Shown here: in pieces, positions 12,734 to 51,785 of the stretch | How the letters are laid out: each line of letters begins with the position of its first letter | Numbering within the stretch: the first letter of the stretch is position 1 | Source: an uncultured Acidobacteriota bacterium | GTDB taxonomy: Bacteria; Acidobacteriota; JAQAZP01 | Reading direction: 5' to 3' | Length of the DNA stretch: 64,000 bases | NCBI GenBank assembly: GCA_963836075.1 | Contig: CAWIIB010000009.1 | Span: forward strand, 1,728,001 to 1,792,000 | The notes under the pieces: generated by a model | Database searches by the model: none | Told to the model about the DNA's origin: nothing | Seen by the model: the letters and a program-made list of their open reading frames with translations, nothing else | Program-made: the position numbers and the translations under genes

Positions 12734-14527
12734 ATGAAACGTCTTCTGATTCTGCTTGTAATGTTCACCTTCGCGGCCATCGGCGCCGCGGACACCATCT
12801 ATGTCCCGGACGATCACGGGACGATTCAGGGGGCGATCGTTGCCGCCCTGGACGGGGACACGATCATCGTCCGCCCCGCAACCTACGAGGAGAACATCGA
12901 CTTCCTGGGCAAGGCCATCACCGTGAAGAGCGAGCTGGGACCGGAGCTGACGATCATCGATGGCAGCGATCCGGTGAACCCCGACTATGGAAGTGTCGTC
13001 ACTATGATGAGTGGCGAGGGTTTGGATTCGGTGCTTGACGGATTCACCCTCAGCTATGGGACCGGAAACTACTATCCGGATTCCGACGAGACTGCAGGCG
13101 GAGGAATTATGATCGAGCTCTCCTCCCCGACGATTATCAACAATATCATCAGCGAGAATACGGCGGACGGTGGCGCCGGAATAAATTGCTATGACAATTC
13201 TTCCCCCGTCATCTCCAACAACACTTTCACGGCCAACGCTGCCGGGGGTGGTGGGGGAGGGATCTTTTGCTGGGAAGGGTCTTCGCCGCTGATCACGGGC
13301 AACACCTTCACCGAAAACACGGGCCTCGAAAATGGTGGCGGGGCGATTGGCTGCTACCTTTTTTGCTCCCCGACGATCGCCAACAACGTCTTCACACTAA
13401 ACGCCGCCACCGGAGAGTATTCCCTTGGGGGGGCGGTCGGTTGCATTGGCCAATGTGATCCGGTGATCAGTAACAACGTCTTCGACCTCAACTCCTCGCC
13501 AAACGAGGGCGGTGCGCTCGCCTTCTTGACGGCCTGCGATCCGACCATCGAGAACAACATCATCACCAACAACTCGGCAGGCGACGCTGGCGGCGGAATG
13601 ACGTTCTGGACCGGATGTCATGCGACCATCACCAACAACCTGATCAGCGGCAACACATGTCAGGCAGTTATGGGTAGCGGCTGGGGTGGCGGTATTAACT
13701 CTTACAGCAGCATACTGACCCTGGCCAACAACACGATCACCGGGAATTCTGCCGAGCTAGTCGGCGGTGGGATTAGCCTCTTGTCGAATTCAGCCGCCAC
13801 CATCAGCAACACAATCCTTTGGGCCAATGATGCACCCGTAGGATCTGAGGGCTATGTTGGAGAACAAGACGAACTCACCATCAGCTTCTCCGACGTGTTT
13901 GGCGGACAGGACTCAATAAAACTTGATCCAGGCGCTACTCTCAACTGGGGCGCCGGGATGATCGACGCGGATCCGCTGTTTTATCTTCCAGCAGACGACG
14001 ACTACCACCTGCAGCAGGATCCCTGTCAGCCGGGGGTGGTCAACCCCTGCGTGGACGCGGGGAATCCGTTCAGTCCGATGATCGCGGGGACAACCCGCAG
14101 CGACTGCGGTCCCGATGTGGACCCCGTGGACATGGGCTATCACTACGCCCTCCTCGATACGGTCTCGGCAGATCTCGGCTGCGTTCCCGATTCTGGCGTG
14201 CTGCCCTTTGCCGTCCAGCTCAGCGTGACCCTGGGCAACGTCGTCGACTACGACCGAACAATCGCCGGACGGATCAACCTGACCCTGGCCGGCGGTGCGA
14301 CCTACCAGAGCTGGCGGGCGGGATACACCAACCTCGGACCGAACGAAATGTTCGTCACCACCTGGATGCAGACGCTGCCGGCGCTGGGAAGCCTGGTGGG
14401 GGGCAATGTCTTCGTACTTCACGCCGAAGACGTGACGCCGCCGCCATTCAACCAGCCGCCATTCCCGCCGTCGGGCGACATCGACACGGCCAGCTGCACG
14501 GTGACGGGGGAGGCATCGACGAGATAG
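12734..14527 (+). CDS. secreted right-handed parallel beta-helix protein with conserved C-terminal module A
   Basis: Signal peptide; TIQGAI..A.DGDTI.V.P.TY.E start; repeated GGGI...P.I.NN.F..N turns; ADPLF...DYHL...PCVDAG; C-terminal module shared with genes at 27369 and 49770. Confidence 0.88.
   Translation: MKRLLILLVMFTFAAIGAADTIYVPDDHGTIQGAIVAALDGDTIIVRPATYEENIDFLGKAITVKSELGPELTIIDGSDPVNPDYGSVVTMMSGEGLDSVLDGFTLSYGTGNYYPDSDETAGGGIMIELSSPTIINNIISENTADGGAGINCYDNSSPVISNNTFTANAAGGGGGGIFCWEGSSPLITGNTFTENTGLENGGGAIGCYLFCSPTIANNVFTLNAATGEYSLGGAVGCIGQCDPVISNNVFDLNSSPNEGGALAFLTACDPTIENNIITNNSAGDAGGGMTFWTGCHATITNNLISGNTCQAVMGSGWGGGINSYSSILTLANNTITGNSAELVGGGISLLSNSAATISNTILWANDAPVGSEGYVGEQDELTISFSDVFGGQDSIKLDPGATLNWGAGMIDADPLFYLPADDDYHLQQDPCQPGVVNPCVDAGNPFSPMIAGTTRSDCGPDVDPVDMGYHYALLDTVSADLGCVPDSGVLPFAVQLSVTLGNVVDYDRTIAGRINLTLAGGATYQSWRAGYTNLGPNEMFVTTWMQTLPALGSLVGGNVFVLHAEDVTPPPFNQPPFPPSGDIDTASCTVTGEASTR
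14156..14527 (+). repeat. C-terminal module A, copy 1
   Basis: ADLGCVPDSGVLPFAV...WRAGYTNL...WMQTLPALGSLVGGN...AEDVTPPPFNQPPFPPSGD...CTVTG. Confidence 0.85.
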
Positions 14528-14680
14528 TCACGGGCGCCACCGTGGCGGCGGGGAGGTTGTAAATCGAGTCCAGCTCTTATCACGGACATCTTTGGCGAAG
14601 GGAGGTGGAAATCCCTCGGATTGAAGAAAGCAGGCGCTTTGGGAGTTCAAATATCATCAACCCTTGGAGGAGGACCTATC

Positions 14681-15808
14681 ATGTATCGCTCAACTTTTAT
14701 CCTGGCTATTGCCGTCCTGTTCCTGACAGTGCTCTCGCCCTGTGTGTCGGCTGAGATCCCTGACGGGACACAGGAAGTGCTCGGAGAATCAGATGGCGCT
14801 CTGTACGCCCTCTATCACCCGCCCTCGTGGAACGGTGACCTGGTGCTCTACGCCCATGGACACGTGTATCTCGACCAGCCGATCCAATTGCCTCAAGGCT
14901 TTGCGCCGACCCGGGACGGTCTTCTGGAACTTGGATACGCTGTGGCCTATTCCAGCTTCTCGAAAAACGGGTGGGCGGTCAAGGAAGGATTCAAGGAGAC
15001 CCGTCAGCTGCGCACGATTTTTGCCGAATGGTTCCAGATGCCGAACAACATATACGTCATGGGGCACTCGATGGGCGGACTGATCGCCGTGATGCTGGCC
15101 GAGAAGCACCCCAGCCTCTTTGCCGGGGCCGTCCCCATGTGCGGTGTGATCGGTGGTTCACAGATGGGGATTGACTATAAGTATGATATCCGCGTGTTGT
15201 TTGACTACTTCTATCCGGATGTGCTGCCCGGCAACGCCCTGGAGGTTCCGGAAGACTTTGATTGCTATGACGGTACCGCGTTCTTTGTTGCAGTCTACAC
15301 CAACCCCGGAGCGCTCTACGAACTCGCTGGCATAGACCAGGTTGAGATCCCGTATGCCAGCTTCGATGAGCTGGTCTGGTCGGTCATGATGAATATTTGG
15401 GGTCACTGCATGGGCTGCAATGGATATCTGGAGCTGATGAACAATCACATCTTCTATGACAACTCGGCCACCTACTACACCGGCTCCATGGATGACGAGG
15501 CACTCAACGCCGGCGTGGACCGCTTCGAGGGACATCCCGCCGGGCACAATTATTTACGGCGCTATTACCAGCCGACCGGCAGGCTGAACATTCCGGCCCT
15601 CACCCTGCACACTTCGGGCGACGGTGTGGTGCACCCGACGCATCAGGCTGCGTACGCGGCAATCGTTGCCGCGCAGGACAATCTGGATCAACTCGTGCAG
15701 CGTGAGTTTGACCGCTTCGATCACTGCACTTTCACCACTGAGGAGGAGATCGAAGCTCTCCTGGACGTGGTTGACTGGGTGGAGACGGGGGTGCCGCCAA
15801 CGCCGTAG
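14681..15808 (+). CDS. secreted alpha/beta-fold hydrolase
   Basis: Signal peptide; YAHG, nucleophile GHSMG, GDGVV (Asp), DHC (His); GGAGG RBS. Confidence 0.85.
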   Translation: MYRSTFILAIAVLFLTVLSPCVSAEIPDGTQEVLGESDGALYALYHPPSWNGDLVLYAHGHVYLDQPIQLPQGFAPTRDGLLELGYAVAYSSFSKNGWAVKEGFKETRQLRTIFAEWFQMPNNIYVMGHSMGGLIAVMLAEKHPSLFAGAVPMCGVIGGSQMGIDYKYDIRVLFDYFYPDVLPGNALEVPEDFDCYDGTAFFVAVYTNPGALYELAGIDQVEIPYASFDELVWSVMMNIWGHCMGCNGYLELMNNHIFYDNSATYYTGSMDDEALNAGVDRFEGHPAGHNYLRRYYQPTGRLNIPALTLHTSGDGVVHPTHQAAYAAIVAAQDNLDQLVQREFDRFDHCTFTTEEEIEALLDVVDWVETGVPPTP

Positions 15809-15840
15809 GGACTGAATTCGGTGAGAAAAGGAGAGACCTC

Positions 15841-17497: not shown

Positions 17498-17832
17498 CGT
17501 CCCGTCGCGCGTCGCGCACCACGCCTGCCCCGGCGTTCGAGCAGTATTGTCGGCGCCGGGGCAGCGATGCTTTTTTGTTCACATCCCGAAGCCCTGACGC
17601 CTGACAGAGGCCTTGGTTCCGGCAGACAGCGCTCCTGCCATTCATCTACATCGACGACGTTGGCCATTTCCAGGCCGGGGACGGTCACGACTCGGCACGG
17701 AGACACATCGACCTCTCAAATAAGCCTCATTCCCCTCTTGATAAAAAAACGCTAATATGGCAAAGTCACCTTACATGTTCCGGCGAGATCCGCAGAATGT
17801 CTCCCAGGAGACCGGAAGATCGGGTGGATCTG

Positions 17833-20304: not shown

Positions 20305-20310
20305 TGCTGC

Positions 20311-22971
20311 TCAGAAAGAGAACTTTAGTCCTGCCACGAAGGTACCGGCCTCCATCCAGGTGTCGGCCTCGCCCCAACTCTGGTTGTCATACCACACGCG
20401 GCTCAGCACGAACTGGTTGTTGGTCACGTTGTAGGCGTCAAGGGTCAGGCTCAATACCGTTTCACCGATATTGATGCCCTTGGTCAGCCGCAGGTCGAGT
20501 TGCCAGGCATTCCCCAGGCGATGGGAGCCGGGCCGGTCGACATGATAAAAATACCCACCGTAATATATGTTAAAAGCGCCCTGGGCAGTCCCCGGAAGGA
20601 GATAATCTTGAACATCACCGAGCCGGTAATAGGGTGTGCCGGTACGCCACCTGAAAACAGCGCCGAGGATGATTCCCCATGGCATGTGGTACGCGCCGTT
20701 GAATTTGACATGGTGGCGAATGTCCCAGGGGAGCTCGCCATAGTGGTTGAAGTAGCGGAGCTCGGCAAAGTCGCCGAAGGGCTGTGTGCCCTCGTGGTTG
20801 AAGTCACCCATTGAACCCTCGGCCCTGGAGAGCGTGTAGGCAAGGTAGAACTGGCTGTTGCCCGAGAGCCGCTTCCGCAGTTGCAGGTCAAGGCCCCGGT
20901 ACTTCCGTTTCCCATCCGGGAGATTGGTGAAGTAATACTTGATTGTTGTCTCCTCCCCGCTGCGGATGGCGTCTTCGTTGCCGATGATATCTTCGATCAT
21001 GTTGTCCTGCCAGGAATAGCTGAGCCTGATCGCTGCCGAATAGTCAATGGCGAACTCGAACTCGTACCCGGCGGTCAGTTCATCCTTGAAGTTTGCCATG
21101 AGGTATGGATCCACCAGGGTGAGGTTGTCTTCCGGAGTAGTGTGGGAAGTCTCTTCCCAATCGCCGGTCTCGTAGTCGCCCTGATATTGCCAGGACTCGT
21201 TCTGCCGGCGGTTCAGATTCTGGCCGAGATACGTGCCCACGGCGTCGAAGTAACGGCCGTAACCAAGATGCACCTTGCTGCGTCCGTCCCCCCCGATGTC
21301 CCAGACGATGCCCGACCGCGGGGCGATAAGGTTGTCCAGCCGGTAGACCCGCTCACCCAGGTCGTTCTCCTGGGTCTGGGTCTCCCAGCGCAGACCCAGG
21401 TTGAAGGTCCACTTCTCATTCCAGTTCCAGCTGTCCTGGGCAAAGAACGTGAGGATATCGCCGCCGTTGCTGTACAGAAGGTCACTGGTTCGATTCAGCA
21501 GGTCCGGGCGGCCGTTGGGGCGGTTGATGATGTAGCTATCGGGATAGATCTCGTAACCCTCCAACTCGAATGTTTGGTATTCCGCTCCGAACTTGAAGTT
21601 GTGCGCACCGGCCCAGTCGCCCCGGTAGTAGTTGAGGGTTGCGGAGTAGAGGTCACGGGGGTGTTTTTCTTCGGGTACTGGCGGAGATATTTCCAGAGAT
21701 AATACTTCCATCGCCATTCCGGTTGTCCACGATGCGGTCGTCTCGCACGCCGGCGGAGGCCGGACCAACGGTCAGGTTCACAGTGTGCGTGGCCATCCTG
21801 GCCTCAAGGAAGAGGTTTGGTGTGAAGATGCTGGTCCAGAGCAGTGATCCCAGGCCGCTGCCTTCCTCTTCTACCGAATAGGCGCTTTCCATGATATCCG
21901 GGTCCTGTGAGTCCTTGCTGTCGATGGTGGTGGGGGTCGCCACATACTGGCCAACGATCTTGTTGTTCGGGTTCACCTGCCAGCTCAGCTTGAGCAGCAG
22001 TTCCTCGTAGATCTCGTTCCGCTTCACCTCCTCTTCGAAGTTGTTGATCCCCGTGATTCGGCGGGTCAGGTTGTTGTATGAGGCGAAAAACCAGAGTCTG
22101 TCTCTGAGCACCGGCCCACCCAGTGAGATCCCCGGTTCGACCTCGTAGAAGCTGTCCTCCTCAACATTGGTGCGGTCGGCCTGCTGGTGACGTTTGAGGT
22201 CGAGGTTGGTGTAGTAGACCGGCACCGTCCCATGGAACTCGTTGCCGCCCGATCTGGTGACCACATTGGAAATCGCTCCAGTGGCTTTCCCGTACTCGGC
22301 CTCCAAGCCCCCGGTGAGCGTCGTGACTTCCTGAACTGCTTCATAGCTGACCTTCAACCCGAAGTTCCCTGATGCGCTGTCGGTGGTGTCCATGCCATCG
22401 ACGAGGAAAACATTGTCGAACCAGGAGGCGCCGTGGCTGCGGATGTTGTAGAAATCGGTAGCTACTATACCGGGGACCATGTTTATGGCGGAGAAATAGG
22501 TTCGGCCATTGGGGATGTCATCCATCAATTCAGACGAGATTGTGTCACTGATGGTGGACGCCTTTGTGTCGACCATCGGTGTCTCGGCGACCACGGTGAT
22601 CTCGTAGTGGCTTCCTGTATCTGCCGTCAGGGTGAAATCCGCCCGGGCCTTGGTGCCCATTTTCACCTTGATGTCGGTTTGGACTACCTTCTGGAATCCA
22701 TCAAGGAATACGGCAACCTGGTATCCCTGTCCCACCGGCACCAGGGGGATGCGGTAGATTCCTTCGGTATCGGTGACTGCCTGTTGCTCGCCCGGCAGGG
22801 CGGGACCGGTGATGGATATAACCACCCCAGGCAGGGGATCTCCCGCCTGATCAACAATCAGGCCGGACAGGCTGCCGTCCTGTGTAGCGGCAACGGTATC
22901 AGTCATGCCCGGAGGAGGAGGAGGAGAAAGAGGATCGGGAGCAACAGCCGGTGGACCTGCCTGGTCTTCAT
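20311..22971 (-). CDS. TonB-dependent receptor with carboxypeptidase-regulatory-like N-domain (frameshifts near 22910 and 21675)
   Basis: Signal MKTRQVHRLLLPILFLLLLL after GGAGG RBS; PLPGV, GGLEAEYG.ATGAI.NVVTRSGGNEFHG, QDSW...NLGLRWE, APR.G, C-terminal Phe (LKFSF). Confidence 0.85.
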
Positions 22972-23364
22972 GGTGATCCCTCCAAAGGGCTCCTCCTTTC
23001 AGACATGAACTATGATGGATGTGAACGGATTTAGAGGTGCAGGTGCAGGTGTAGGGGGCAGGAGGTGGCGCGTTCAATTGTGACGGCTCAAAGGTTCAAC
23101 AGATGTATGAAATAAACGTGCGACCTATGACTGTATTTGTCAAGTGGTAATTTCATTTCATTTGAGGTTATTCAATTAAGGTTTTTTATTGCAATGAATA
23201 ACATGATCATCCTTCTGATGGTTGGCGATCGCAACCTGACTCAGCTCGGTTCCCAGGCCCCATACTGAGTTCCCGTCCGAGGCGGTGCTAAAGTTCCGGC
23301 GGCAGTACACGGTGATGTACTGCCTGTGCTTAGAGGGCTCTAACCGCGTACGAATGTACCAGCT

Positions 23365-25612: not shown

Positions 25613-25630
25613 CCCCGGGGAGAATATGTG

Positions 25631-27368: not shown

Positions 27369-29156
27369 GTGCGTTTTTCTCGCCTCATCGCCATCACTCT
27401 CCTCTTCGTCCTCGATATCCTGGTGTGTACCACCGGGGCGATTGCTTCCGAACCTGACATCCCTGACGGCATGGCCGTCGAGATCGTGCTCGACGACTTC
27501 GAGACCCAGTTCCCCGCTTTTCACCAGGGCACCCGCTACGATCTGGCCGGCTGGGACGCCGCCCGCTCGGTGGTGGGGCTGGTGGTGGACCGGGCGGAGC
27601 TGGAAGCGCTCCGAGAGGAGGGCTATGAACCGGAAGTGGTGGCCCGGGCCACGCGGGGCGGTGTCGATCCCGAATACGTGGATTACGAGGAGATCCTCGC
27701 CCGCCTGCAGGAGATCGAGGGGGACTACCCAGCCATTGCCCGGGTGGTCAACCTCAACCAGGAGCTGGGTACGCCGCTGACCAGCGAAGGCCGGGCGCTC
27801 TGGGCGCTGAAGGTCTCTGACAACGTCCAGCTTGCCGAGGACGAACCGGCCTTCGTGGTGGACGGCGTCCACCACGCCCGCGAACTGGTCACTCCACTGG
27901 CTGTGCTCGACATCGCCGAGACCCTGACCCAGCGCTACGGCGGCAACCCCAGCGCCACCGCCTGGGTCGACGGTTACGAGATCTGGCTCATCCCGGCGGT
28001 CAATCCCGACGGCCTGGAATATGTCTTCGACGTCTACGACATGTGGCGCAAGAACCGCACCTATTTTCCCCTGGTCGATGAATACGGGGTGGACAACAAC
28101 CGCAACTATTCCTTTCTCTGGGGAGAGTGCGGAGCTGTGAGCAGCGATCCGTACAGCGATCTTTTCATCGGGCCTGCTCCTGAGTCGGAGGCCGAGACCC
28201 GGACCGTCGAGGCGCTGATGGCCCGGGAAAAACCGGCGGTCTACGTCAGTTACCACAGTTACGGCCAGGAGGTGCTCTATCCTTACGTCTGCGCCACCCT
28301 GGCCGAGACGGCGCTCTACCATGAAATCCGCGACGGGTACGCTGGACAGATGAGTTATGGTACCCGCCTCGCCTCGGCCAGCGGGGAGAGTTTCGAGGAT
28401 GCCTACAACGAACACGGGGCGATCGCCTTCCTCACCGAAACCGCCACCTGGTTCCAGCCCGCTTTCAGCGAGGTGCCGGTGATCCTCGAGCGGATCCGGC
28501 CCGGTTGGACCTACCTGATGGAGCGGGGGCTCAGTTCTTCGCTCACCGGCCGCGTCACCTCCGCGCTCACCGGGGCCCCGCTTCCCGGGGCGACGGTGTC
28601 GGTGCAGGAGGTGGCCTTTGTGGAAGGGGAGCGGCGCAATCCCGAACCGCTCTTTGGCGGCTTCACCCGGCTGCTCCAGCCCGGGACGTATACCGTGGAC
28701 GTCTCCTGTGATGGATACCAGACCCAGGTCCACCCGGTAACCATCGGGGCGGTGCCCTACCGGTTGGAGGTGCAGCTCCAGCCGGTGTCCCTCATCGGCG
28801 CCGGGCTGACCTGCGCTCCGGCTTCGGGCACCCTCCCCTTTGCCGTATCCATCAGCGCCACGCTGCAGAACCTCTACCCCGGCCTGGCCCGGACCGTGGC
28901 CGCCCGGCTCCACGTCACCCTGGCCGACGGGACTCAGCTGCCCAACTGGCGGGCCGGCTTCACCAACGTCCCGGCCGGAGGCGAATATGTCGCCGCCTGG
29001 ACCACCCAGTTGCCGGCCCTGGGTGCGCTGGTGGGGGCGAACCGCTTCCTGCTTTTTGCCGAGGATGTAACCGCCTCGCCCTGGAACCAGCCGCCCTACC
29101 CGCCCTCCGGCAGCACCGGCAGCGCCCAGTGCCTGGTGACCGGCGCCGCGCCCTGA
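27369..29156 (+). CDS. secreted M14 zinc carboxypeptidase with carboxypeptidase-regulatory domain and C-terminal module A
   Basis: Signal peptide; HHARE, NPDG, WRKNR, GVDNNRNY, SEAET, SYHSY. Confidence 0.9.
   Translation: MRFSRLIAITLLFVLDILVCTTGAIASEPDIPDGMAVEIVLDDFETQFPAFHQGTRYDLAGWDAARSVVGLVVDRAELEALREEGYEPEVVARATRGGVDPEYVDYEEILARLQEIEGDYPAIARVVNLNQELGTPLTSEGRALWALKVSDNVQLAEDEPAFVVDGVHHARELVTPLAVLDIAETLTQRYGGNPSATAWVDGYEIWLIPAVNPDGLEYVFDVYDMWRKNRTYFPLVDEYGVDNNRNYSFLWGECGAVSSDPYSDLFIGPAPESEAETRTVEALMAREKPAVYVSYHSYGQEVLYPYVCATLAETALYHEIRDGYAGQMSYGTRLASASGESFEDAYNEHGAIAFLTETATWFQPAFSEVPVILERIRPGWTYLMERGLSSSLTGRVTSALTGAPLPGATVSVQEVAFVEGERRNPEPLFGGFTRLLQPGTYTVDVSCDGYQTQVHPVTIGAVPYRLEVQLQPVSLIGAGLTCAPASGTLPFAVSISATLQNLYPGLARTVAARLHVTLADGTQLPNWRAGFTNVPAGGEYVAAWTTQLPALGALVGANRFLLFAEDVTASPWNQPPYPPSGSTGSAQCLVTGAAP
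28788..29156 (+). repeat. C-terminal module A, copy 2
   Basis: AGLTCAPASGTLPFAV...NWRAGFTNV...WTTQLPALGALVGAN...AEDVTASPWNQPPYPPSGS...CLVTG. Confidence 0.85.
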
Positions 29157-32158: not shown

Positions 32159-34627
32159 ATGAAACGCATCCCATTCATCGTCGTCATGATCCTGTTTCTG
32201 TTGCCCCTGTCCGGTTGGGCACTGGACACCGACACCAGGGTGGTCAGCCCGGTCCAATCGTGGAGTGAAGCGGACCTGGCCACCTTCCATGACGGGTGGA
32301 TCTACGTGAAGTTCGTCGAGGGATCCGATGTGCTGCTGCGGGACGGGCGGTTCAGCGACGAGAGCGGTCTCCGGCTTCAGACGGTGAACGGCCTGCTCCA
32401 GGCCAGCAGCGCCAGCGATGTCCGGCCCACCTTCAAAGGCGACCGCGACCGGTTCCGCCGGCTGAAAGCGTTTGGCGAGGCGAAGTCTGGCGTCACCGGC
32501 CCGGATCTCTCCCTCTGGTTCACTCTGCAGGTCCCGGGCGGCAAGGCCGCCCTGGCCCACACGCTCAACGCGCTCAACGCCGACCCGGCGGTGGAGATCG
32601 CCCACCCGGCGCCGCAGGTGGAACTGGCAACGGTCCGGCCGGACCACCCGGCCAAAGCCGCGGCGCCCGCGCCGGGCGGCACCCCCGATTTCACCGGCGA
32701 GCAGCACTATCTCTACGACCCGCCGGTGGGGCTCAATGCCCCGGCGGCCTGGTCGATTCCCGGGGGCAAGGGCGCGGGGATGAAGTTCATCGACGTGGAA
32801 CTGGCCTGGGTGGAAGACCACGAGGATTTCACGGCGGACAACCACTTTTACCTCGGCGGTGCCCCGGAAGATCCGGGGTACAACGACCACGGCACCGCGG
32901 TACTGGGCGAGGTGGTGGGCACACACAACAGCTATGGTGTGGACGGCTTTGCCGCCGACGTCCAGTTCGGCATGGTGGCCATCGACATCAACCAGTATCC
33001 CGATACGGCGCAGTACTTCCAGGAGGCGGTGGACAACCTCGATGCCGGCGACGTCTGGCTCATCGAGTTGCAGATGTACCCCTCGGGCCGCGACGCCACC
33101 CCCATGGAATACGTGCAGGTGAACTACGACGTGATATGGACCGGTGTCTTCTCCCGCGGCGTGGTCTGCGTGGAGGCCGGGGCCAACGGCAGCCAGGACC
33201 TGGATTCCGCTGTCTGGGGCGGGATCTTCGACCGCACGGTACGTGATTCGGGCGCGATCATGGTCGGCGCCGGCACCCCCACCGGACGGGTGGCTGAGTC
33301 GTTCACCAACTACGGCAGCCGGATGGATGTCCACGCCTGGGGATCTCAAATTTACACCACCGGATACGGGGACGCTTACAACGGCGGATCACTGCAGACC
33401 GAATACACCGCAAGCTTTGGCGGCACCTCCGGTGCCTCGCCGATGATCGTCGGCTCCTCGCTCTGCCTCCAGGGTATCGCCAGGGCCAACCTCCTGCGGG
33501 TGCTCGAGCCATTGGAGCTGCGGGCACTGCTCCACGATACCGGCATCGAGCACCTCGACCCGTCGCGGGAGATCGGCCCGCGGCCCGATCTCAGCGCAGC
33601 GGCGGCGATGGTGCTCAGCCTCGGCACACCGGTGGTGATCTGCGGCCCCGGACCAGGGATCGGCAACCCGCCGACGGTGCGACTCTTCCCGCCGGAGCAG
33701 GACGCCGGGATGTTGAGCGAGTTCCCGGCCTACGGCGCTTCCGGCTACGGGGTCAATGTGGACTGCGGAACGGTGGGCGGACTATCGGGCACGATCATTA
33801 CCGGTCCCGGCCCGGGGGACATCTACGGCCCCCATGTCCGCGGATTCACCGGCGACGGCACGCCGTTGCCCAGCCTCAGTTTCCTGGCCTACGGCACGCT
33901 GAAATTCGGGGTCAACGTGACCCTCGGCGACCTTGACGGAGACGGTGCCGCCGAGATCGTCACCGGTGCAGGCCCCGGTGCGGTCTTCGGCCCCCATGTC
34001 CGCGCCTTCAGCTACAACGGGTCGTCGGTCACCCCGGTGCCCGGAGTGAGCTATTTCGCTTACGGCACCAACCAGTGGGGGGTCAACGTGGGCTGCGGGG
34101 ACATCGACGGGGACGGCAGTGACGAGATCGTCACCGGCGCCGGGCCGGGCGCCATCTTCGGCCCCCACATTCGCGGTTGGAACGTGGACGGCGGTCCGGT
34201 GGCCACCATCCCGGCGGTGAGCTTCTTTGCTTACGGCACCAACAGGATGGGGGCCAACGTGGCCTGCGGCGACGTGGATGGTGACGGGATCGACGAGATT
34301 CTCACCGCCCCCGGTCCCTCCGGCGTTTTCGGGGCACACGTCCGCGGGTGGAACTTTGACGGGGGCACCGTGGCGGCCATCCCGGGGATCAACTTCTTTG
34401 CCTGGGACTATCCCGCGGTGCGGTTCGGTGCGCGGGTCTCTTCGGGGATCGACTACAACGGGGACGGTGGGGAAGACATGCTGGTCTCCCCGGGCCCCGA
34501 TCCGGAGGCTCCCGCGCAGCTCAAGGTCTTCGGCTACGACGGTTCCACCACATCGCTGCTGTTCTCGCTCAATGCCTTCGATACCGGGATCACCCACGGG
34601 ATCAATGCCGCGGGTGGAATGATCTAG
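32159..34627 (+). CDS. secreted S8 subtilase with C-terminal FG-GAP-like propeller (module B)
   Basis: Signal peptide; FIDVE, DHGTAV, AGANG, FGGTSGASP; module B from about 33626. Confidence 0.9.
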   Translation: MKRIPFIVVMILFLLPLSGWALDTDTRVVSPVQSWSEADLATFHDGWIYVKFVEGSDVLLRDGRFSDESGLRLQTVNGLLQASSASDVRPTFKGDRDRFRRLKAFGEAKSGVTGPDLSLWFTLQVPGGKAALAHTLNALNADPAVEIAHPAPQVELATVRPDHPAKAAAPAPGGTPDFTGEQHYLYDPPVGLNAPAAWSIPGGKGAGMKFIDVELAWVEDHEDFTADNHFYLGGAPEDPGYNDHGTAVLGEVVGTHNSYGVDGFAADVQFGMVAIDINQYPDTAQYFQEAVDNLDAGDVWLIELQMYPSGRDATPMEYVQVNYDVIWTGVFSRGVVCVEAGANGSQDLDSAVWGGIFDRTVRDSGAIMVGAGTPTGRVAESFTNYGSRMDVHAWGSQIYTTGYGDAYNGGSLQTEYTASFGGTSGASPMIVGSSLCLQGIARANLLRVLEPLELRALLHDTGIEHLDPSREIGPRPDLSAAAAMVLSLGTPVVICGPGPGIGNPPTVRLFPPEQDAGMLSEFPAYGASGYGVNVDCGTVGGLSGTIITGPGPGDIYGPHVRGFTGDGTPLPSLSFLAYGTLKFGVNVTLGDLDGDGAAEIVTGAGPGAVFGPHVRAFSYNGSSVTPVPGVSYFAYGTNQWGVNVGCGDIDGDGSDEIVTGAGPGAIFGPHIRGWNVDGGPVATIPAVSFFAYGTNRMGANVACGDVDGDGIDEILTAPGPSGVFGAHVRGWNFDGGTVAAIPGINFFAWDYPAVRFGARVSSGIDYNGDGGEDMLVSPGPDPEAPAQLKVFGYDGSTTSLLFSLNAFDTGITHGINAAGGMI

Positions 34628-38241: not shown

Positions 38242-40917
38242 TCAGTCTCCGGTGCGGAAGAACTGTCCGCCGGCCACCCGTCCGCCGTGGGTCTGCCCGC
38301 TGATCGCGGAGAAATAAGCGGAGTAGATGATCTGCCCCGTGGCGGAGAGGCTGAAGTAACCCACGTTGCAACCGGTGCCCGGGTCCGGGCCCGGGGCCAC
38401 GATAAACTCGTCCGCACCGTCGCCGTCCAGGTCGGTGCAGGCCACCACGGCGCCGAAGTCGTTGCCGAGGGCGAAGAAGTTGACCTCGGACATGGGGTTC
38501 ACGGCAGCGCCGTCGTAGTTGAACCCGCGGATATGGGCGCCGAAGATCTCACCCGGCCCCGGTCCGGTGATGATCTCCGCCATCCCGTCGCCGTCGATGT
38601 CGCCGCAGGCCACGTTGACCCCGTATTTCAGCGTGCCGTAGGCGAAGAAACTCACTGCCGGGTTGGCAGAGGCCGGCGGGGCGCCGTCGTAGTCCCACCC
38701 GCGCACGTGGGGGCCGAAAACGGCGCCCGGTCCCGCGCCGGTGACGATCTCGTCGAACCCGTCACCATCGATGTCGCCGCAGGCCACGTTGACACCCCAC
38801 TTGAGCGTTCCGTAGGCGAAGTAGCTGGCCCCCGGCAGGGGGATCACCGGAGACGCACCGTCGTAATCCCATCCGCGCACGTGGGGACCGAAGACGGCGC
38901 CCGGTCCCGCGCCGGTGACGATCTCGTCAAAGCCGTCCCCGTCCAGGTCGCCGGCGGTCACATTGACCCCGTACTTGTTGGTGCCGTAGGCGAGGAAGGA
39001 GACCCCGGACAGCGGTGTGCCGTCCAGCTCAAAGGCCCGCACGTGGGGGCCGAACACCGCCCCCGGGCCCGGCCCGGTGAGGATCTCGTCGATGCCGTCC
39101 CCGTCCAGGTCGCCGGCGCCCGGGTTGGCGCCGTAGCGGTCAACCCCGTAGGGCACGATCTCTTCGCCCAACTGGTCGGTGTTGCGTTCAAAGGTCCGCA
39201 CCGCGCAGCGGTTTGTCCCGGCAGGGCCGGGGGCGACCACCGCCCCGCCAGTGCCTCTGAGCTTGTAGAGCAGCCAGAGGTCCGGGTCGAGAATCACTCG
39301 CGTGGGCTGCGGGAGCACGGCGATGGCATAGGTCTCGCTGGCCTGGTGCATTCTGACAGTCTCACGCTGCGTGCCCTCCGGCGTGACGATGGCCAGTTCC
39401 AGCGGCGTGTCGAACAGCGGGGTCTGCGCATTGACCTCCTGCACCTGGTCGACGGTCAGGGAGAGCACGCCCCCGGCCCAGCTCCACTCGTAGCGAAATT
39501 CGGGGTAACCGGCCAGGTAGACCCACTGCTGGAAGAAGGTCTCCAGGTCGAGACCCGAGATATCCTCGGCCGCGGCGATAAAGTCCTCGGTGGTGGCGGT
39601 GGAATAGGCGTGGCGAGTGGCGTACTCGTGGAAGATATCGGCGAACACCTCGTCCCCGGTCATCCGGCGCAGCATGTGCAGCACCCAGGAGCCCTTGTAG
39701 TAGACGGTGAGCCCAAACCAGTAGTCGGGGTCATAGAGCGGGTAGCGGCCCCAGGATTCTTCGTGGCTGAAATACTGCCGGCGGCGGTTCTCCATCCAGC
39801 CCAGGAAGCTGTCGCGGCCGTAGTGGTGTTCGTCGAACAGGGCGTCGAAGTAGGTGGCGAACCCCTCGTTGAGCCAGATGTTCTCCCAGCCGTGGCAACC
39901 AACCAGGTTGCCCCACCAGTGGTGGGCCAGCTCGTGGGCCACCACCCACTCCCAGTCCCGGGAGCCGGTGACCCACTGGGATTCCATGGTGACCATGGTC
40001 TGGTGTTCCATGGTGGACCCGGCGGCGGCCATGGCCTGGCCGAAGGTGGGATAGGGGTAGGGGTAGTAGTTGTCGGAGAAGAAGTCGATCATCTCCGGCA
40101 GGTTCTCCCAGTCGTAGACCGCGTCCTCCATCCGGTCGGGGTAGACGAAGTGTTTGAGCGGCACGCCGCCGGCAGTGGTCTGGGTGTAGTTGTCGTAGTC
40201 CGAGACGGCGAGCATGATCAGGTAGGTGGCGATGGAGTAGTCGTGAAAGTAGTTCCAGGTCATGGTGCCGTCGCCGTTGTCCACCGTGCTCAGCAGGTCG
40301 CCGTTGGAGGCCACCTTCATCGACTGCGGGGCGGTGATGTGCCCGCGGTACCAGTCGGCCCGGTCCTCGGGCAGGTCGCGGCAGGGATACCAGTAGCGGG
40401 ACCCTTCCGGCTCGGTGATCGTCCAGCAAACGCCCCCATTCTGGTCGTCGAAGTGCAGTCCGGTCACCGGTGTTCCGTGGTAGCTGATGGCGAACGACCG
40501 CTCCTCGTCGAGGCCCATGGGCGTGGCCGGCTGAATAATCAACGCCGCGTCGTTGTGATGCCAGGACACCGGGATGGCCCCGCTCTCCACCACGTCCAGA
40601 ACCGTCATCTGCACCAGATCGAGGGTAAAGCCGGTGCACCCCGCTTCCAGGCTGCGCACGCCCACGGTGCAGACGGCGCTGATATATTCCGCGTCGAAGT
40701 CGAGGGTGATGTCGATTTCGTAGGAGACCACATCGATGTTGTCGCTGGAAGAGCTCTCCCTGGTTTCGTGGTTGCGGTGTTCCCAGGCGGGTGCGGGCTG
40801 TGGACCCTTGCCGGCATCGAGGATTTCGTCAGGGATCCTCGCCTCCAGTGGGGCTGAGGGAAGAAGGCCGAGAACGAGGACAAGAAGAAGGACTGCTGCA
40901 CCGCTGCGATTGCGCAT
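38242..40917 (-). CDS. secreted M1 aminopeptidase with C-terminal FG-GAP-like propeller (module B)
   Basis: Signal peptide; (G)STMEH, HELAHHWWG...WLNEGFATY, YYKG; module B about 38242-39250. Confidence 0.9.
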   Translation of the reverse strand: MRNRSGAAVLLLVLVLGLLPSAPLEARIPDEILDAGKGPQPAPAWEHRNHETRESSSSDNIDVVSYEIDITLDFDAEYISAVCTVGVRSLEAGCTGFTLDLVQMTVLDVVESGAIPVSWHHNDAALIIQPATPMGLDEERSFAISYHGTPVTGLHFDDQNGGVCWTITEPEGSRYWYPCRDLPEDRADWYRGHITAPQSMKVASNGDLLSTVDNGDGTMTWNYFHDYSIATYLIMLAVSDYDNYTQTTAGGVPLKHFVYPDRMEDAVYDWENLPEMIDFFSDNYYPYPYPTFGQAMAAAGSTMEHQTMVTMESQWVTGSRDWEWVVAHELAHHWWGNLVGCHGWENIWLNEGFATYFDALFDEHHYGRDSFLGWMENRRRQYFSHEESWGRYPLYDPDYWFGLTVYYKGSWVLHMLRRMTGDEVFADIFHEYATRHAYSTATTEDFIAAAEDISGLDLETFFQQWVYLAGYPEFRYEWSWAGGVLSLTVDQVQEVNAQTPLFDTPLELAIVTPEGTQRETVRMHQASETYAIAVLPQPTRVILDPDLWLLYKLRGTGGAVVAPGPAGTNRCAVRTFERNTDQLGEEIVPYGVDRYGANPGAGDLDGDGIDEILTGPGPGAVFGPHVRAFELDGTPLSGVSFLAYGTNKYGVNVTAGDLDGDGFDEIVTGAGPGAVFGPHVRGWDYDGASPVIPLPGASYFAYGTLKWGVNVACGDIDGDGFDEIVTGAGPGAVFGPHVRGWDYDGAPPASANPAVSFFAYGTLKYGVNVACGDIDGDGMAEIITGPGPGEIFGAHIRGFNYDGAAVNPMSEVNFFALGNDFGAVVACTDLDGDGADEFIVAPGPDPGTGCNVGYFSLSATGQIIYSAYFSAISGQTHGGRVAGGQFFRTGD

Positions 40918-47364: not shown

Positions 47365-47900
47365 GGAGTTTCTCCTTTCGGGCCGTGCGATTTCCCGGTC
47401 TGATCTGGCCGGCCGGGGAAGACCACCCACTTGAAGGGCCACTGCTCGTGGATCCAGTCCCTGACGGCCTGTTCGAGGACCGGGTCGAGCCCCTGGTCAA
47501 AGGCGCTCTGACGCACCCAGAGAAAGACCGCGGCATCGGGTCCGCCGATGCCCTTGTTGATGTAGACGCAGCCGAGAACCCGGCTCTCGTCGGGGGTGAC
47601 CACGGTATAGGTGAAGCTGGTGTGTTTGGCGAAGTGCCGCTCCTTGACAGCCATGTCGGCGCGGTTCTGCTCAAGGGTGAAATTGGTCGGGGGCCAGGCG
47701 TCGCCGAGCAGCGCCTTGTGGATCAGGTCGATGCTTTCCATCACCGCTGCGTAGTCTTTCTCCGCGTCAGCGACAGTGATCGGGCGAATGCGGAACTGCC
47801 CGGTTTCCAGCCCGGGTGGGACCTCGAAGTCAGCGGGGACGATGGCGGGGTGGCAGCCGGCCAGGACGAGGACGAGGATCAATGGAATCATTCGTTTCAT
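47361..47900 (-). CDS. GNAT-fold lipoprotein (acetyltransferase-like)
   Basis: Lipobox LAGC; IRP...DAEKDYAAVMES...FTYTV...LGCVYI...WVR...WPF. Confidence 0.78.
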   Translation of the reverse strand: MKRMIPLILVLVLAGCHPAIVPADFEVPPGLETGQFRIRPITVADAEKDYAAVMESIDLIHKALLGDAWPPTNFTLEQNRADMAVKERHFAKHTSFTYTVVTPDESRVLGCVYINKGIGGPDAAVFLWVRQSAFDQGLDPVLEQAVRDWIHEQWPFKWVVFPGRPDQTGKSHGPKGETP

Positions 47901-47991
47901 TGGTTTTCTCTCGAAACAATGGCCCACCCGGCGAGGGTGGATCCGGTTGTCGATTTTTCTTTCGGACGGGGCGGCGGACGCCGCACTCCGA

Positions 47992-48732
47992 TCAGCGCTG
48001 GAGCAGCACTGACAGTTCCGCGTCCTCGATCCTCCGCACGCTGCTGATCAATGCGTACCAGATCAGCACGGTGATGGTGGCCGACATCAGGCTGACCACC
48101 ATGGTGGCCGAGCCGGCGGTGAGCCAGTGGACGAAGGAGACCGGTATGGGCACGCCGTCCTCGGCGATCCGTCTCATCCAGATGTGCAACTCGATGAAGA
48201 ACCCCCAGGCCCCGATGAACAGGGCGCCGCAACCGAGCAGCAGCAGCAACGGCAGGCCGCGGCGCAGGGTGGGGATTCGATGGTCCCTCTTGATGTAGAT
48301 CTTGTAGACCTGGGCCACTGAAAGCAGCAGCACCGTCAGCGACACTCCCAGCACCGGCCAGATATAGACGCTGGCGTTGCGGAAGAATTCGGCGCTGAGC
48401 ATCTCCTTTCCGGCGAAGAAGAGGACGAAGAGCAGGATGGCGATGAGGGTCAGCCGTTCCCAGAGGGTCTGGGCCTGCAGGGAGAGGGAGTCCATCCAGC
48501 GCTGGAACGGGGTGCGGTGGATGTGTATTAGCTCGGTGAGAGCCTCTTCCGAGACGGCGAAGTGCTCCCGCGCCCGGGCTTCGGCCTCCTGTTCATCGAG
48601 CCCCTGCTCGCGGCAGGTCTCGTAGAGGTCTTCCAGGTCGGAGGCCATCTCCAGCAGGATTCTCGACTTGGCCGGCTGGGGCAGGTCGAGGCGGTCGCTG
48701 GTCTGCTGCAGCAGGCTGACAAATCGGTTCAT
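47992..48732 (-). CDS. membrane protein with HAAS/permease-prefix-like N-domain (PadR partner)
   Basis: RILLEMASDLEDL...G.DEQEA...A.EHF followed by 4 TM segments; ATGA overlap with padR. Confidence 0.7.
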   Translation of the reverse strand: MNRFVSLLQQTSDRLDLPQPAKSRILLEMASDLEDLYETCREQGLDEQEAEARAREHFAVSEEALTELIHIHRTPFQRWMDSLSLQAQTLWERLTLIAILLFVLFFAGKEMLSAEFFRNASVYIWPVLGVSLTVLLLSVAQVYKIYIKRDHRIPTLRRGLPLLLLLGCGALFIGAWGFFIELHIWMRRIAEDGVPIPVSFVHWLTAGSATMVVSLMSATITVLIWYALISSVRRIEDAELSVLLQR

Positions 48733-49076
48733 GGCTCCACTCCTTCGACGAGGCCGGTAAAGCGGCGGTAAAATTCACTCCATGCCTCCCGCTGCCGGTC
48801 AAAGTAGCTCCGGCCGCGGGGGGTGAGGACGTAGGATTTGCGTTTACGCCCTGGCGAGTCGGGATGCCAGCGGCCCTTGATCAGCCCCTCCTTCTCCAGT
48901 TTGTGCAGGATGGGGTAGAGCGTGCCGTGGTTGAAACGGAAGTAGCCGCCGCTCTCCTCCTCGATGGCCAGGGCCAGCTGGTAGCCGTGACGCTCCCCCC
49001 TGGAGAGGATGGCGAGGATCAGCGCCTCGTTGCAGCTGCGGGCCAGGTTCTGGGTTTCGAGATTCGGTTCGGCCAT
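48729..49076 (-). CDS. PadR family transcriptional regulator
   Basis: LILAIL...HGYQL...GTLYPILHKLE..G...RKRKSY.LT..G. Confidence 0.92.
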   Translation of the reverse strand: MAEPNLETQNLARSCNEALILAILSRGERHGYQLALAIEEESGGYFRFNHGTLYPILHKLEKEGLIKGRWHPDSPGRKRKSYVLTPRGRSYFDRQREAWSEFYRRFTGLVEGVEP

Positions 49077-49296
49077 GGTCCGTTCCGCTCTATATGTCTA
49101 CTCTCGTTATATCGATACTCTATATATAGTCCCGGGCTGCCGTCCTGTCAATCGGTTTCGGACATACAAGGATCTCAGAAAGAACTTGACTTTACGACAA
49201 GACAAAACAATATTGAACAATAATGAACTATAGAGACCTTTTGTGCGTCATTAATACTGATTGAACCTAGGGCCTCATAACCGGAGGGATTGAAAA

Positions 49297-49608
49297 ATGG
49301 ACGAGTATCCGATGATCCTCACCCTGGAGCAGGCAGCGGAGATGCTCCAGCTCTCCGCCCGGACCGTGCAGCGGATGGTGAGCAAGGGCAAGATGCCTGG
49401 GCGCCGCATCGGCGGCCAGTGGCGTTTTGACCGTGACCAGCTGCGGGAGTGGGTGCGTGGCGCTGATGTGGAGCCGGCAGCGGCACCGGTGAGCCAGGCC
49501 GAGCTGATCGCCCGCGAGGCCCGGCGCATGGGTGTGGACCTGCCCCAGACGCTGATCGACCTCCAGCAGGCGGCCATGAAGCGGCAGGCGGACCGCACGG
49601 AGGAATAG
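49297..49608 (+). CDS. helix-turn-helix (excisionase/BldC-like HTH_17) DNA-binding protein
   Basis: ILTLEQAAEMLQLSARTVQRMV..GKMPGRRIGGQWRFDR..L.EW; GGAGG RBS. Confidence 0.88.
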   Translation: MDEYPMILTLEQAAEMLQLSARTVQRMVSKGKMPGRRIGGQWRFDRDQLREWVRGADVEPAAAPVSQAELIAREARRMGVDLPQTLIDLQQAAMKRQADRTEE

Positions 49609-49769
49609 CATGTGTTACCCCGAAGGGGGGTAACCTTCGGGTTTACTTTGCTCCAAAATTGCGGTATGTATAACCCAACGTGTACTGTTTCAATGGGATA
49701 TTGCCCATCGTTGAAATAGTTAAAATCCTCGGTCAACGTCTTTTTTACGTATCAAGGGAGGGATGATTC

Positions 49770-51785
49770 ATGCGGATGTTCTCACACGATCACCTCCGGC
49801 GCCCACTCAGCGCCTTGGGGGTGGTGATGCTTCTGGCCCTTCTCGGCGCGGCACCGGCCGCGGCCAGCGTGGAAACACTCTCCAACGCGTTCGCCGCCGC
49901 ATCACCGGGAAGCGGGTACGACACCCTGCTGGTGCTGGATGGGCAAAATATCTACACCGGTGGCTTAACCCTTCCCCCGGGTAACCACTGCATCCTGGGC
50001 AATGGAGCGGTCCTCAACCTCCAGGGCCTGAGCGTGGAAGCGGGCAACGGGGTGATCCTCGACGTCAGCGGCTGCTCCTTCACCAACGGCGTCATGGGCC
50101 TGGATTTCACTGCCGGTTCCATGGGCCACGTGGAGTGCTGCAATTTCATCGGCAACAATGACGGCCTGCGGGCCTGGGAAGGTTCGTCGGTGACCCTGGT
50201 CAGCAACAACTTTGTCGACAACAGCCACTACGGGGTCTACCGCCACGAGTATGGCGGGGTGTTCAACGCCTACAACAATGCCTGGGGCAACGCGGTTAAC
50301 GACTACGTCTACTATTGCCCCGGGTGAGGCGGCGGATCGGACTCCGCTGAGAGTCCGGTGCCGGGTACCGGCACCATTTACGCTGATCCGCTCTTCGCCA
50401 TGGAATACATCAACGATTTCCACCTCACCGCTCCTTCCCCCTGTGTGGGCACCGGCCTCGACAGCTACGACATCGGCGCTCTGCCGTTCACCGTCCGCGC
50501 CGCAGCCCCCGGCGGCATCTCTGCCACACCGGTGGGGGTCACCGAGGACTGTGACCTCGCCTGGACCAACCCGACCCACGACACCGACGGAAACGTCCTG
50601 GCATCGCTGGACGGGGTCAACGTCTACCGCAACGGCGAACTGCTGACCACCCTGTCCCCGGCCTCGCCCGGCCAGGCGATGAACCATACCGACACCGTTC
50701 CCATCTCCGACTGGTGCCGCTACACCGTTTCGGCGGTGAGCGGGGGCACTGAAGGGCTGCGCGGCAGCCACGCCGAACTATGGGTCGGCGGCGACGTCAC
50801 CGGGATCCTGGTCTGGAACCTCGGCACGCAAAAGGAGAACGGTGAAGCGGTGCGCGACGCCATCCTCAGCCGGTCCTATGACAACGTTGTGCGCCTGGTG
50901 GAACAGCCTGGCCGCTACCCGCTCTCCGACGGCGTGGACGCTGTCTTCGTGCTCCTCGGGGTCTACGGATGGAACTACGTCCTCGGAGACACCGAGAGCC
51001 AGCTGCTGGTGGACTACCTCGACATGGGCGGCAATGTCTACATGGAGGGGAGTGACACCTGGTATTTTGATCTGGCCACGCCCGTTCACACCTACTTCAA
51101 CATCAACGGTGTCGCCGACGGCAGTGCCGACTGCGCCACCGTGCGCGGTGCGGCGGGCACCTTTACCGACGGGATGAACTTCACCTACACCGGCAACAAC
51201 TCCTACATCGACCACCTGGCCCCCATCGGCTCGGCGTTCACCATCCTGAGCAACGTCACCCCGGCCTATGACGCCTGCGTGGCCTACGACAGCGGCAGCT
51301 ACAGGACCATCGGCTGCTCCTTCGACTTTGCCGGCCTCAGCGGCGGCTCGGCGAGGGAAACCCAGGCGGAGCTGATGGCCGCCATGCTCGAATTCTTCGG
51401 CCTGACCAATGGATATGTGGACACCCTGACGGTGGAGCTGGCCTGCACCCCGGACAGCGGCACGCTGCCCTTTGCCTTCCAGCTGGCGGTGTCGATACAG
51501 AACCTCACCGACCAGTCGCGGGTGATGGCCGCCCATCTCGATGTGGTTCTCGCGTCGGGCGCCTCCTATCCCAACTTCCGCGCCGGCTACACCACCATGG
51601 GGCCCGGCGAGACGTTCAGCACCAGCTGGATGCAGACCCTGCCCGCACTGAGTGGGCTGGTGGGAGCCAACCTGATGGTCCTCACCGGCCAGGATGTTAC
51701 GCCTGCGCCCTACAACCAGCCGCCGTACCACCCCTCGGGCGATACGGACGCCACCGCGGTCGAACTGTTCGGCATCCATCCCTAG
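49770..51785 (+). CDS. secreted beta-helix/FN3 protein with in-frame TGA (putative selenocysteine in CxxU) and C-terminal module A
   Basis: ORFs 49770-50327 and 50358-51785 share a frame and are separated only by TGA 50325-50327: YNNAWGN...YYCPG-U-GGGSDSAESPVPGTGTIYADPLF...DFHL..SPCVGTG. Confidence 0.75.
50328..50363 (+). promoter_or_regulatory. putative bacterial SECIS element
   Basis: Stem ATCGGACTC (50336-44) / GAGTCCGGT (50351-59), loop CGCTGA beginning 17 nt after UGA with G at position 2; lower stem CGGC/GCCG. Confidence 0.68.
51420..51785 (+). repeat. C-terminal module A, copy 3
   Basis: VELACTPDSGTLPFAF...NFRAGYTTM...WMQTLPALSGLVGAN...GQDVTPAPYNQPPYHPSGD. Confidence 0.85.

Follow-up and report, generated by a model that had tools for sequence, protein, structure and literature searches.

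An orphan C-terminal module on diverse exported proteins of an Acidobacteriota-labelled lineage

Three proteins in one window end in the same module

The window analysed here is a 64-kb stretch (64,000 nucleotides; positions 1,728,001 to 1,792,000 of contig CAWIIB010000009.1, assembly GCA_963836075.1) from an uncultured bacterium labelled Acidobacteriota. It encodes a beta-helix protein, an M14 carboxypeptidase and a third protein without a Pfam family (Table 1), and the only region common to all three is their last ~120 residues, which we call module A (47–53% identity by BLASTP). The aligned copies fill 124 columns with a single one-residue gap and 41 invariant columns, and the second and third copies are 51–52% identical to copy 1. 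Comparison of the whole proteins by BLASTP gave one strong C-terminal segment for each pair (E = 2e-33 for copies 1 and 2, 2e-27 for copies 2 and 3 and 1e-39 for copies 1 and 3), and all remaining segments between these proteins had E >= 0.002. When a profile of the three copies was run against the 879 six-frame, stop-to-stop open reading frames (ORFs) of the window, it matched exactly three, the next best hit having an E value of 1.6. Thus, chance cannot account for a similarity of this degree, and the window has no fourth copy.

The profile envelopes begin at 14156, 28791 and 51420, and each runs to the stop codon; that of copy 1 covers residues 493–613 of its stop-to-stop ORF. A shared C-terminal module in these three proteins had been proposed in an original prediction made by reading the sequence. 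Alignment, BLASTP and the profile scan confirm it, the module coordinates given there agree with our envelopes, and the cysteine pair ascribed to two of the copies is present in copies 1 and 2. Signal peptides had been assigned to all three proteins; by reading, we find signal-peptide-like N termini on the proteins ending in copies 1 and 2, and one on the third protein only when an in-frame TGA codon is read through.

Table 1 Features of the 64-kb window that carry module A or module B (the C-terminal propeller described below)
Feature	Position	Strand	Description
Beta-helix protein, whole ORF	12734–14527	+	597 aa, Beta_helix/NosD
Cargo of copy 1	12734–14155	+	Signal-peptide-like N terminus; right-handed beta-helix (PF13229, NosD-like)
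Module A, copy 1	14156–14527	+	Profile E 1.5e-68; last ~123 codons plus stop; both conserved Cys
M14 carboxypeptidase, whole ORF	27369–29156	+	595 aa, Peptidase_M14 + CarboxypepD_reg
Cargo of copy 2	27369–28787	+	Signal-peptide-like N terminus; Peptidase_M14 (residues 110–330), CarboxypepD_reg (391–470)
Module A, copy 2	28788–29156	+	Profile E 1.3e-62; both conserved Cys
Module B on S8 peptidase	33638–34624	+	Found by profile
Module B on M1 peptidase	38245–39240	-	Found by profile
Cargo of copy 3, TGA (50325–50327) read through	49770–51419	+	Signal peptide, beta-helix, CPG-TGA-GGG, cap motif, unknown-family domain
Third module-A ORF	50358–51785	+	475 aa, no Pfam family
Module A, copy 3	51420–51785	+	Profile E 2.1e-67; second Cys missing, only N-terminal Cys kept
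Module B on 753-aa secreted protein	52096–53100	-	Found by profile
Module B on 1043-aa alpha/beta-hydrolase-like protein	54487–55476	-	Found by profile
Module B on 826-aa protein	57888–58877	-	Cargo 52% identical to the cargo of module-A protein L069

Reading through this TGA (50325–50327) joins ORF 49770–50327 to ORF 50358–51785 and gives a joint N terminus of MRMFSHDHLRRPLSALGVVMLLALLGAAPAAAS. In the resulting gene (49770–51785, + strand), the codon stands in the context Y-C-P-G-TGA-G-G-G-S-D, a CxxU-like motif, with beta-helix repeats upstream and a beta-helix cap motif downstream. An orthologue in another metagenome-assembled genome (MAG; locus L032, 1906–1908) has TGA at the identical residue, 186, in the same context, and stable hairpins are predicted 3' of the codon (dG -28.6 kcal/mol, z -2.36). 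A search for tRNA-Sec and other Rfam families found no match within the 64-kb window. The TGA looks like a selenocysteine codon rather than the mark of a broken gene.

Module A is a compact family at the ends of exported proteins

An exhaustive HMMER scan of 1.84 billion representative proteins identified module A in 499 representatives at E <= 1e-3, among them 462 at E <= 1e-10 and 375 at E <= 1e-30. Module A is a compact family with a sharp boundary and almost no twilight zone. A word-indexed search scored 8000 candidates, of which at least 401 were module-A proteins at E <= 1e-3, and at least 12 of the best 120, from which details were taken, lie on the window's own contig (3,516,849 bases). 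Scanning one genome per GTDB species with two exact peptide patterns, which would miss diverged copies elsewhere, gave 112 confirmed matches, 80 of which were kept, in 74 loci: 43 in one Acidobacteriota-labelled MAG, 30 in a second MAG and one in a MAG of 34% GC. After ORF filtering, 84 module-A ORFs remained in 72 loci, with lower bounds of at least 52 and at least 32 in the two main MAGs. The abundance of profile matches foreseen in the original prediction is therefore borne out. The single locus in the 34%-GC MAG (L070, 1816–3363) encodes a 515-aa FG-GAP_2-repeat protein that ends in module A (44% identity), so the module extends to a genome of very different composition.

The Acidobacteriota affiliation of this lineage is a weak one, taken from labels. 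Lgt of the window has tight relatives at 71–98% identity, followed by proteins at 51%, 45% (Candidatus Aminicenantes) and 37% (Vicinamibacterales), and the nearest labelled homologues of the M14 protein are from 'Acidobacteria bacterium'. Carriage on plasmids or phages was rejected, as tblastn of module A against 72,556 plasmids and 50,697 phage records returned nothing. A full-text search of the literature found neither the motif NQPPYPPSG nor two of its substrings; it turned up no earlier description of such a C-terminal sorting domain in Acidobacteriota, and a wider search returned only secretion systems of type IX (T9SS) or unrelated topics.

Module A lies almost always at the very end of the protein. 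Among 241 stored proteins, 0–4 residues follow it in 234, 5–14 in three and 15 or more in four, and in 81 of the 84 locus ORFs it comes within 2 residues of the end. Such a terminal position had been anticipated, and the module is not placed at random. Two full copies, either in tandem or ~175 residues apart, occur in 11 of the 241 proteins. One of the internal copies precedes a CBM96-like region, and two proteins (P0059 and P0110) combine the module with CBM96-like domains. The 30 residues upstream of module A have the composition of the cargo and form no Pro/Thr-rich linker, and a special linker was accordingly rejected.

Signal-peptide-like N termini were called with a crude regular expression in 169 of the 220 module-A proteins that start with methionine. 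Of 31 complete-looking locus ORFs, 25 passed the same expression, and at least four of the six failures have an over-extended start with a signal-like segment downstream; the predicted association with signal peptides thus holds for most members. Lipobox-like N termini were found in only 4 of the 220 proteins, and anchoring as lipoproteins was rejected on this ground.

We scanned 73 of the 84 locus ORFs with Pfam at E <= 1e-6, leaving out 11. The cargo was Peptidase_C25 in seven (several with Propeptide_C25), M14 in three, and M28, M23, Trypsin_2 and GH18 in one each; beta-helices accounted for ten, FG-GAP types for eight, BNR/sortilin types for eight and single other families for 12 (including PAD_porph with CBM56, CotH with LTD, and an arylsulfotransferase), and 21 had no family. 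The Pfam lists of the best 120 module-A proteins agree with this census, and neither PF18962 nor PF13860 was found in the 73 ORFs or in those 120 proteins. The cargo of module A is diverse and Sec-exported.

Relatives of the M14 cargo indicate what else can occupy the C-terminal slot. The nearest one, P0241 (79% identity), carries module A, and the next two (62% and 59%) carry a Cys-rich acidic repeat followed by a hydrophobic helix and an Arg-rich tail, ends that no curated sorting model matches. Other relatives stop after CarboxypepD_reg, and distant ones from KSB1, Zixibacteria, Eisenbacteria and Fidelibacterota have Por_Secre_tail or FlgD_ig at the C terminus. These ends suggest that the slot holds sorting or anchoring tags generally.

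One possible explanation for this distribution is that module A is an export or attachment signal, which a dedicated translocon of the outer membrane would recognise on the periplasmic side, either alone or with a sortase-like attachment step. It would then be a functional analogue or a far-diverged relative of the T9SS C-terminal domain (CTD), and module B, the propeller described below, would be a second class of signal. The terminal position, the dozens of cargos per genome, the Sec-like N termini with so few lipoboxes and the Por_Secre_tail of distant M14 relatives at the same position all agree with such a role. The cargo families also parallel the gingipains, PPAD and CPG70 (PMC11285876; this source and PMC4793230 are cited throughout from excerpts). 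Tandem and internal copies speak against an export signal, as do the comparisons with T9SS tails given in the last section, and we regard this explanation as rather unlikely.

Module A is interchangeable with a C-terminal propeller

Module B is our name for a C-terminal FG-GAP propeller of the integrin type, ~330 residues long, which ends five further secreted proteins of the window (Table 1). It often ends in A-A-G-x-F, and 15 copies are 55–72% identical to one another. A module-B profile matched 18 of the 174 ORFs neighbouring module-A genes, in 17 of the 74 loci. Wherever the ORF is complete, module B lies 0–5 residues from the stop codon, like module A, and none of 23 module-B ORFs carries module A. 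In a search against the PDB, all 32 matches of module B were integrin alpha propellers (best E 5.5e-5).

The two modules are found on the same kinds of cargo. A search of 301 module-A cargos found homologues (E <= 1e-10) of 11 of 19 module-B cargos. Two adjacent genes at locus L053 (1513–3363 and 3378–5870) encode proteins that share 75.7% identity across 449 aligned positions (residues 44–491 and 47–492) and part exactly at the junction, where one continues with module A (497–616) and the other with module B (from 501). The orthologous locus L057 (1483–3363 and 3408–5912) has the same tandem of a module-A and a module-B gene, and cargo identity across both loci is 70–76%. The divergence of these paralogues at the junction, together with the shared cargo homologues, indicates that A and B are interchangeable C-terminal cassettes. 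The replacement of module A by module B on near-identical cargo is new here. Because the integrin propeller is an interaction scaffold, the slot of module A can be filled by a binding domain. By contrast, a 330-aa propeller is implausible as an export signal, yet it occupies this same slot.

It could also be imagined that the two modules bind each other, the loop of module A contacting the propeller of module B, such that the tagged enzymes would form hetero-complexes by analogy with dockerins and cohesins. The two modules co-occur in genomes and exclude each other within a protein, 17 of the 74 loci have genes for both modules no more than 3 kb apart, the window has three module-A and five module-B genes in 64 kb, and tandem paralogues of one cargo carry one module each. 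Moreover, what integrins bind is a loop on an Ig-like (fn3) domain, and the nearest solved relatives of module B are integrin alpha propellers. Adjacency of the genes, however, may merely reflect islands of secretome genes, and we consider pairing between A and B highly improbable.

Conservation and coevolution point to a disulfide-stapled all-beta domain

Across 338 distinct copies of module A, 26 of the 120 positions are at least 90% conserved: T1, P10, G13, P16, N27, R34, G47, W53, R54, G56, W70, P75, G82, N84, F86, D92, V93, T94, P95, P97, N99, Q100, P101, P102, G107 and A120. The alternation of hydrophobic and polar residues suggests about seven strands and a long loop (94–110), and the last two strands are separated by the near-invariant loop E-D-V-T-P-x-P-x-N-Q-P-P-Y-P-P-(S/A)-G. 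The last residue is proline in 220 of the 338 copies, mostly as x-A-P. The opening P-x-S-G-T-L-P-F resembles the first strand of PKD domains.

In a mean-field coevolution analysis (effective sequence number, Meff, 278), the top pair was Cys8–Cys114 with a score of 4.70, whereas three column-shuffled controls peaked at 1.53–1.71. Of the 338 copies, 284 have both cysteines, 28 have a single one and 26 have none; this pair speaks for folding outside the cytoplasm. In all, 14 pairs exceeded the shuffle maximum. They include a beta3–beta4 hairpin (36–60, 44–55, 43–49 and 40–48), a non-local beta2–beta5 ladder (18–71 and 20–74) and contacts between the loop and strands (35–95 and 54–109). Ig-type ladders hold 21 of the top 60 pairs, compared with 10, 10 and 15 in the shuffles. 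Coevolution thus supports a Cys8–Cys114 disulfide and an all-beta fold, and the robust contacts fit a disulfide-stapled Greek-key beta sandwich as a predicted architecture. A Greek-key sandwich, like the conserved C-terminal end, would also suit an export signal, as the T9SS CTD is a 3+4 sandwich whose C-terminal motif is needed for export (PMC11285876, excerpt).

Paralogous copies of module A have a median identity of 0.50 both within and between genomes, and the identity is 0.53 for copies on the same cargo family and 0.51 for copies on different families. There is therefore no concerted evolution, and shuffling of the module between cargos is old. The equal identity within and between genomes also led us to reject coevolution with a partner specific to each genome. 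Among 19 reciprocal-best cargo pairs from the two MAGs, the module was 75.2% and the cargo 75.6% identical (medians), with the module the more conserved of the two in 10 pairs. To judge by these orthologues, module A is inherited vertically and constrained like an enzyme domain.

Evolution at the cargo's rate, an all-beta pattern of about seven strands and the pairing with CBM96-like domains in P0059 and P0110 would be compatible with a module that has no common partner, either a generic Ig- or PKD-like stabilising or spacer domain or a substrate-binding module, similar to carbohydrate-binding modules (CBMs), that happens to sit last. However, module A makes up the final 120 residues of 97% of its proteins, a restriction that spacer domains do not show, and no PKD, CARDB, fn3 or CBM model matched any of 41 aligned members at E <= 10. 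In addition, the peptidases, phosphatases, sulfotransferases, chitinase and beta-helix proteins that bear the module have no common substrate, and more than a fifth of its positions (26/120) are near-invariant across these unrelated cargos. A partnerless module therefore seems improbable to us.

Genes around module A

All-against-all clustering of neighbouring genes recovered 25 module-B ORFs (including those of the window), six sulfatases and four Ser/Thr kinases. A conserved neighbour as the partner of module A was rejected, there being no recurrent family beyond these three among the 174 neighbour ORFs. T9SS core genes (SprA/Sov, PorV, PorU and PorK-N) gave no match above cut-off in the 174 neighbour ORFs and 42 window ORFs, and neither a translocon nor a sortase or scaffold emerged from ~0.49 Mb of sequence of three genomes, a sample too small to establish absence. 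Curated sorting-domain models (E <= 1e-3) matched none of the last 110 residues of 129 ORFs without module A or B, many of them cytoplasmic, and other known C-terminal sorting tags in the lineage were rejected on this basis.

Elsewhere in the window, a TonB-dependent-receptor-like gene (CarboxypepD_reg, Plug and OMP_b-brl_4) is split into two ORFs (20314–21768 and 21656–23077, - strand) with a 112-base overlap, which may reflect a frameshift or wrong ORF starts. A 1198-aa protein combining an ABC-2 membrane domain with Peptidase_M1 (6697–10290, + strand) is encoded directly 3' of an ABC ATPase gene (5780–6697). A radical SAM/SPASM protein gene (60874–62361, + strand) adjoins that of a group-1 glycosyltransferase (62368–63594, - strand).

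A possible role in docking exported proteins

Together, these results show that module A is an orphan and nearly always terminal cassette on exported cargo, with a covarying Cys pair and a predicted all-beta fold, that can be swapped with a propeller. Our tentative interpretation, which we hold with somewhat less than even confidence, is that it may be a C-terminal address domain that docks its cargo non-covalently to one extracellular or envelope partner. In this model, module A would be fused as a cassette to the extreme C terminus of Sec-exported peptidases, beta-helix proteins, beta-propeller proteins and other hydrolases, and would act as a shared address by which these diverse cargos reach the common partner, giving retention at the cell surface or assembly. 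The near-invariant loop between the last two strands, together with the conserved Arg, Trp and Asn residues, would be the candidate contact site.

Four points make docking or anchoring more likely than an export signal. An interaction propeller can occupy the slot; copies in tandem or inside the protein, usual for binding modules, would be odd for an export signal; the conservation of module A is far above that reported for T9SS CTDs (PMC11285876, excerpt); and T9SS is reported only in phyla of the FCB (Fibrobacterota–Chlorobiota–Bacteroidota) group (PMC11285876 and PMC4793230, excerpts).

Several observations weigh against docking. The terminal position (97%) and the conserved C-terminal end are equally expected of an export signal, and C25 with its propeptide, PAD_porph and M14 are T9SS cargo in Porphyromonas gingivalis (PMC11285876, excerpt), which favours such a signal. 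All signal-peptide calls come from a crude regular expression and reading by eye. As recurrent families, the 174 neighbour ORFs show only module-B proteins, sulfatases and kinases, and no partner. Finally, the module evolves no more slowly than its cargo in the 19 orthologue pairs, and is therefore not exceptionally conserved.

What docking, or any other use of a common partner, would mean depends on the partner. A translocon would make module A the lead to a secretion or attachment pathway yet to be discovered; an envelope ligand or module B would make it part of a new enzyme-display system. We think it unlikely that module A, with module B as a second class, tags cargo for export or attachment by an outer-membrane pathway that is still undescribed, in an Acidobacteriota-labelled lineage outside the FCB phyla, which would amount to an independent invention of the T9SS logic of using a folded C-terminal domain as an address; if true, the exoproteins served by this pathway would number 30 to 50 or more in each genome. 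Whatever the partner, module A merits a Pfam or NCBIfam model, which would flag the secretome of these organisms and give a portable tag for experiments. The richness of this secretome in C25, M14, M28 and S8 peptidases suggests protein scavenging.

Comparison with known systems

Module A belongs to no family against which we compared it. The window copies had no match in Pfam or NCBIfam at E <= 1, T9SS types A and B included. Searched against Pfam at E <= 10, the 41 aligned members gave only four single chance matches (best E 0.085), and the best match of a profile search of PDB chain sequences had an E value of only 0.38. For a comparison with T9SS tails by hhalign, we took the C-terminal 95 residues of M14 homologues, 16 with Por_Secre_tail and 18 with FlgD_ig. 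The probability was at most 1.1% with the 41 members and at most 2.0% with 338 sequences, whereas the two tail sets, as a positive control, matched each other at 99.8%. Comparison with nine other families of beta sandwich excised from those proteins (CarboxypepD_reg, P_proprotein, Peptidase_C25_C, GEVED, LTD, BACON_2, InhA_MAM, DUF2341 and CBM56) gave at most 5.6%, a weak test because each template comprised only one to four sequences. Membership in known families was rejected on these negative searches. The original prediction had not recognised the motif as a T9SS CTD, dockerin or PEP-CTERM, and no corresponding model (TIGR04183/PF18962, TIGR04131, PF00404 and the sorting-tag models) matches it; nor did a CBM, FlgD-Ig or CARDB family, named there as possible identities, emerge from Pfam, NCBIfam, the PDB or, for FlgD_ig and Por_Secre_tail, hhalign.

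A close counterpart is the T9SS type A CTD (Por_Secre_tail, PF18962/TIGR04183), likewise a beta-rich domain at the C-terminal end of diverse Sec-exported cargo, present in dozens of copies per genome and on the same cargo families (C25 with propeptide, PAD_porph and M14), which in P. gingivalis are the classic T9SS cargo gingipains, PPAD and CPG70 (PMC11285876, excerpt). The T9SS CTD is described there as an Ig-like 3+4 beta sandwich of 70–100 residues in which one loop is conserved and the C-terminal end matters for function; module A has ~120 residues. Paralogues of module A are ~50% identical, whereas identities among T9SS CTDs are 'generally very low' (PMC11285876, excerpt). Module A further differs in its conserved disulfide, its occasional tandem or internal copies and the lack of any sequence or profile relation. 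The C-terminal motif of T9SS CTDs contains a conserved beta7 Lys and is required for export (PMC11285876, excerpt); this Lys is absent from the module-A consensus end, S-C-T-V-T-G-x-A-P, whereas the T9SS tails that we compared end in the K-K-x-x-L-L-K type. T9SS genes are reported as absent outside FCB phyla (PMC11285876, excerpt), and as present in 60 of 97 Bacteroidetes and none elsewhere (PMC4793230, excerpt). The module-A lineage, labelled Acidobacteriota, falls outside these phyla. These differences argue against a T9SS-type export signal.

Short sorting tags of the PEP-CTERM/exosortase, LPXTG/sortase and MYXO-CTERM kinds likewise mark many secreted proteins of a lineage at their C termini, and the helix and Arg-rich tail that replace module A in the next-nearest M14 relatives are broadly of this type. 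By contrast, module A is a 120-residue globular domain whose sequence closes with x-A-P and has neither a hydrophobic helix nor a basic tail, and the curated NCBIfam sorting-tag models do not match it. The Ig-like PKD, fn3 and CARDB domains and the pre-peptidase C-terminal (PPC) domain of secreted proteases also have about seven beta strands and contacts compatible with a Greek key, and are also frequently appended to secreted hydrolases; module A is set apart from them by the absence of a model match, its nearly invariable terminal position, its long invariant Pro-rich loop and its sharp family boundary.

In its use, module A also resembles the non-covalent display modules of the dockerin–cohesin and SLH systems, being a terminal cassette on many enzymes that is swappable between paralogous cargos. 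Dockerins are conserved terminal cassettes on many secreted enzymes of one organism and are swappable, and a single common partner would account for such high conservation. A dockerin is a duplicated Ca-binding helical segment, whereas module A has an all-beta pattern; the 41 members matched neither PF00404 nor SLH, and no cohesin-like scaffold was found in the sequence searched. A folded C-terminal domain shared by unrelated exoproteins is how T9SS and cellulosomes organise secretion and surface display. Module A may represent the same logic, realised with an uncatalogued domain in uncultured bacteria that are not expected to have a T9SS.

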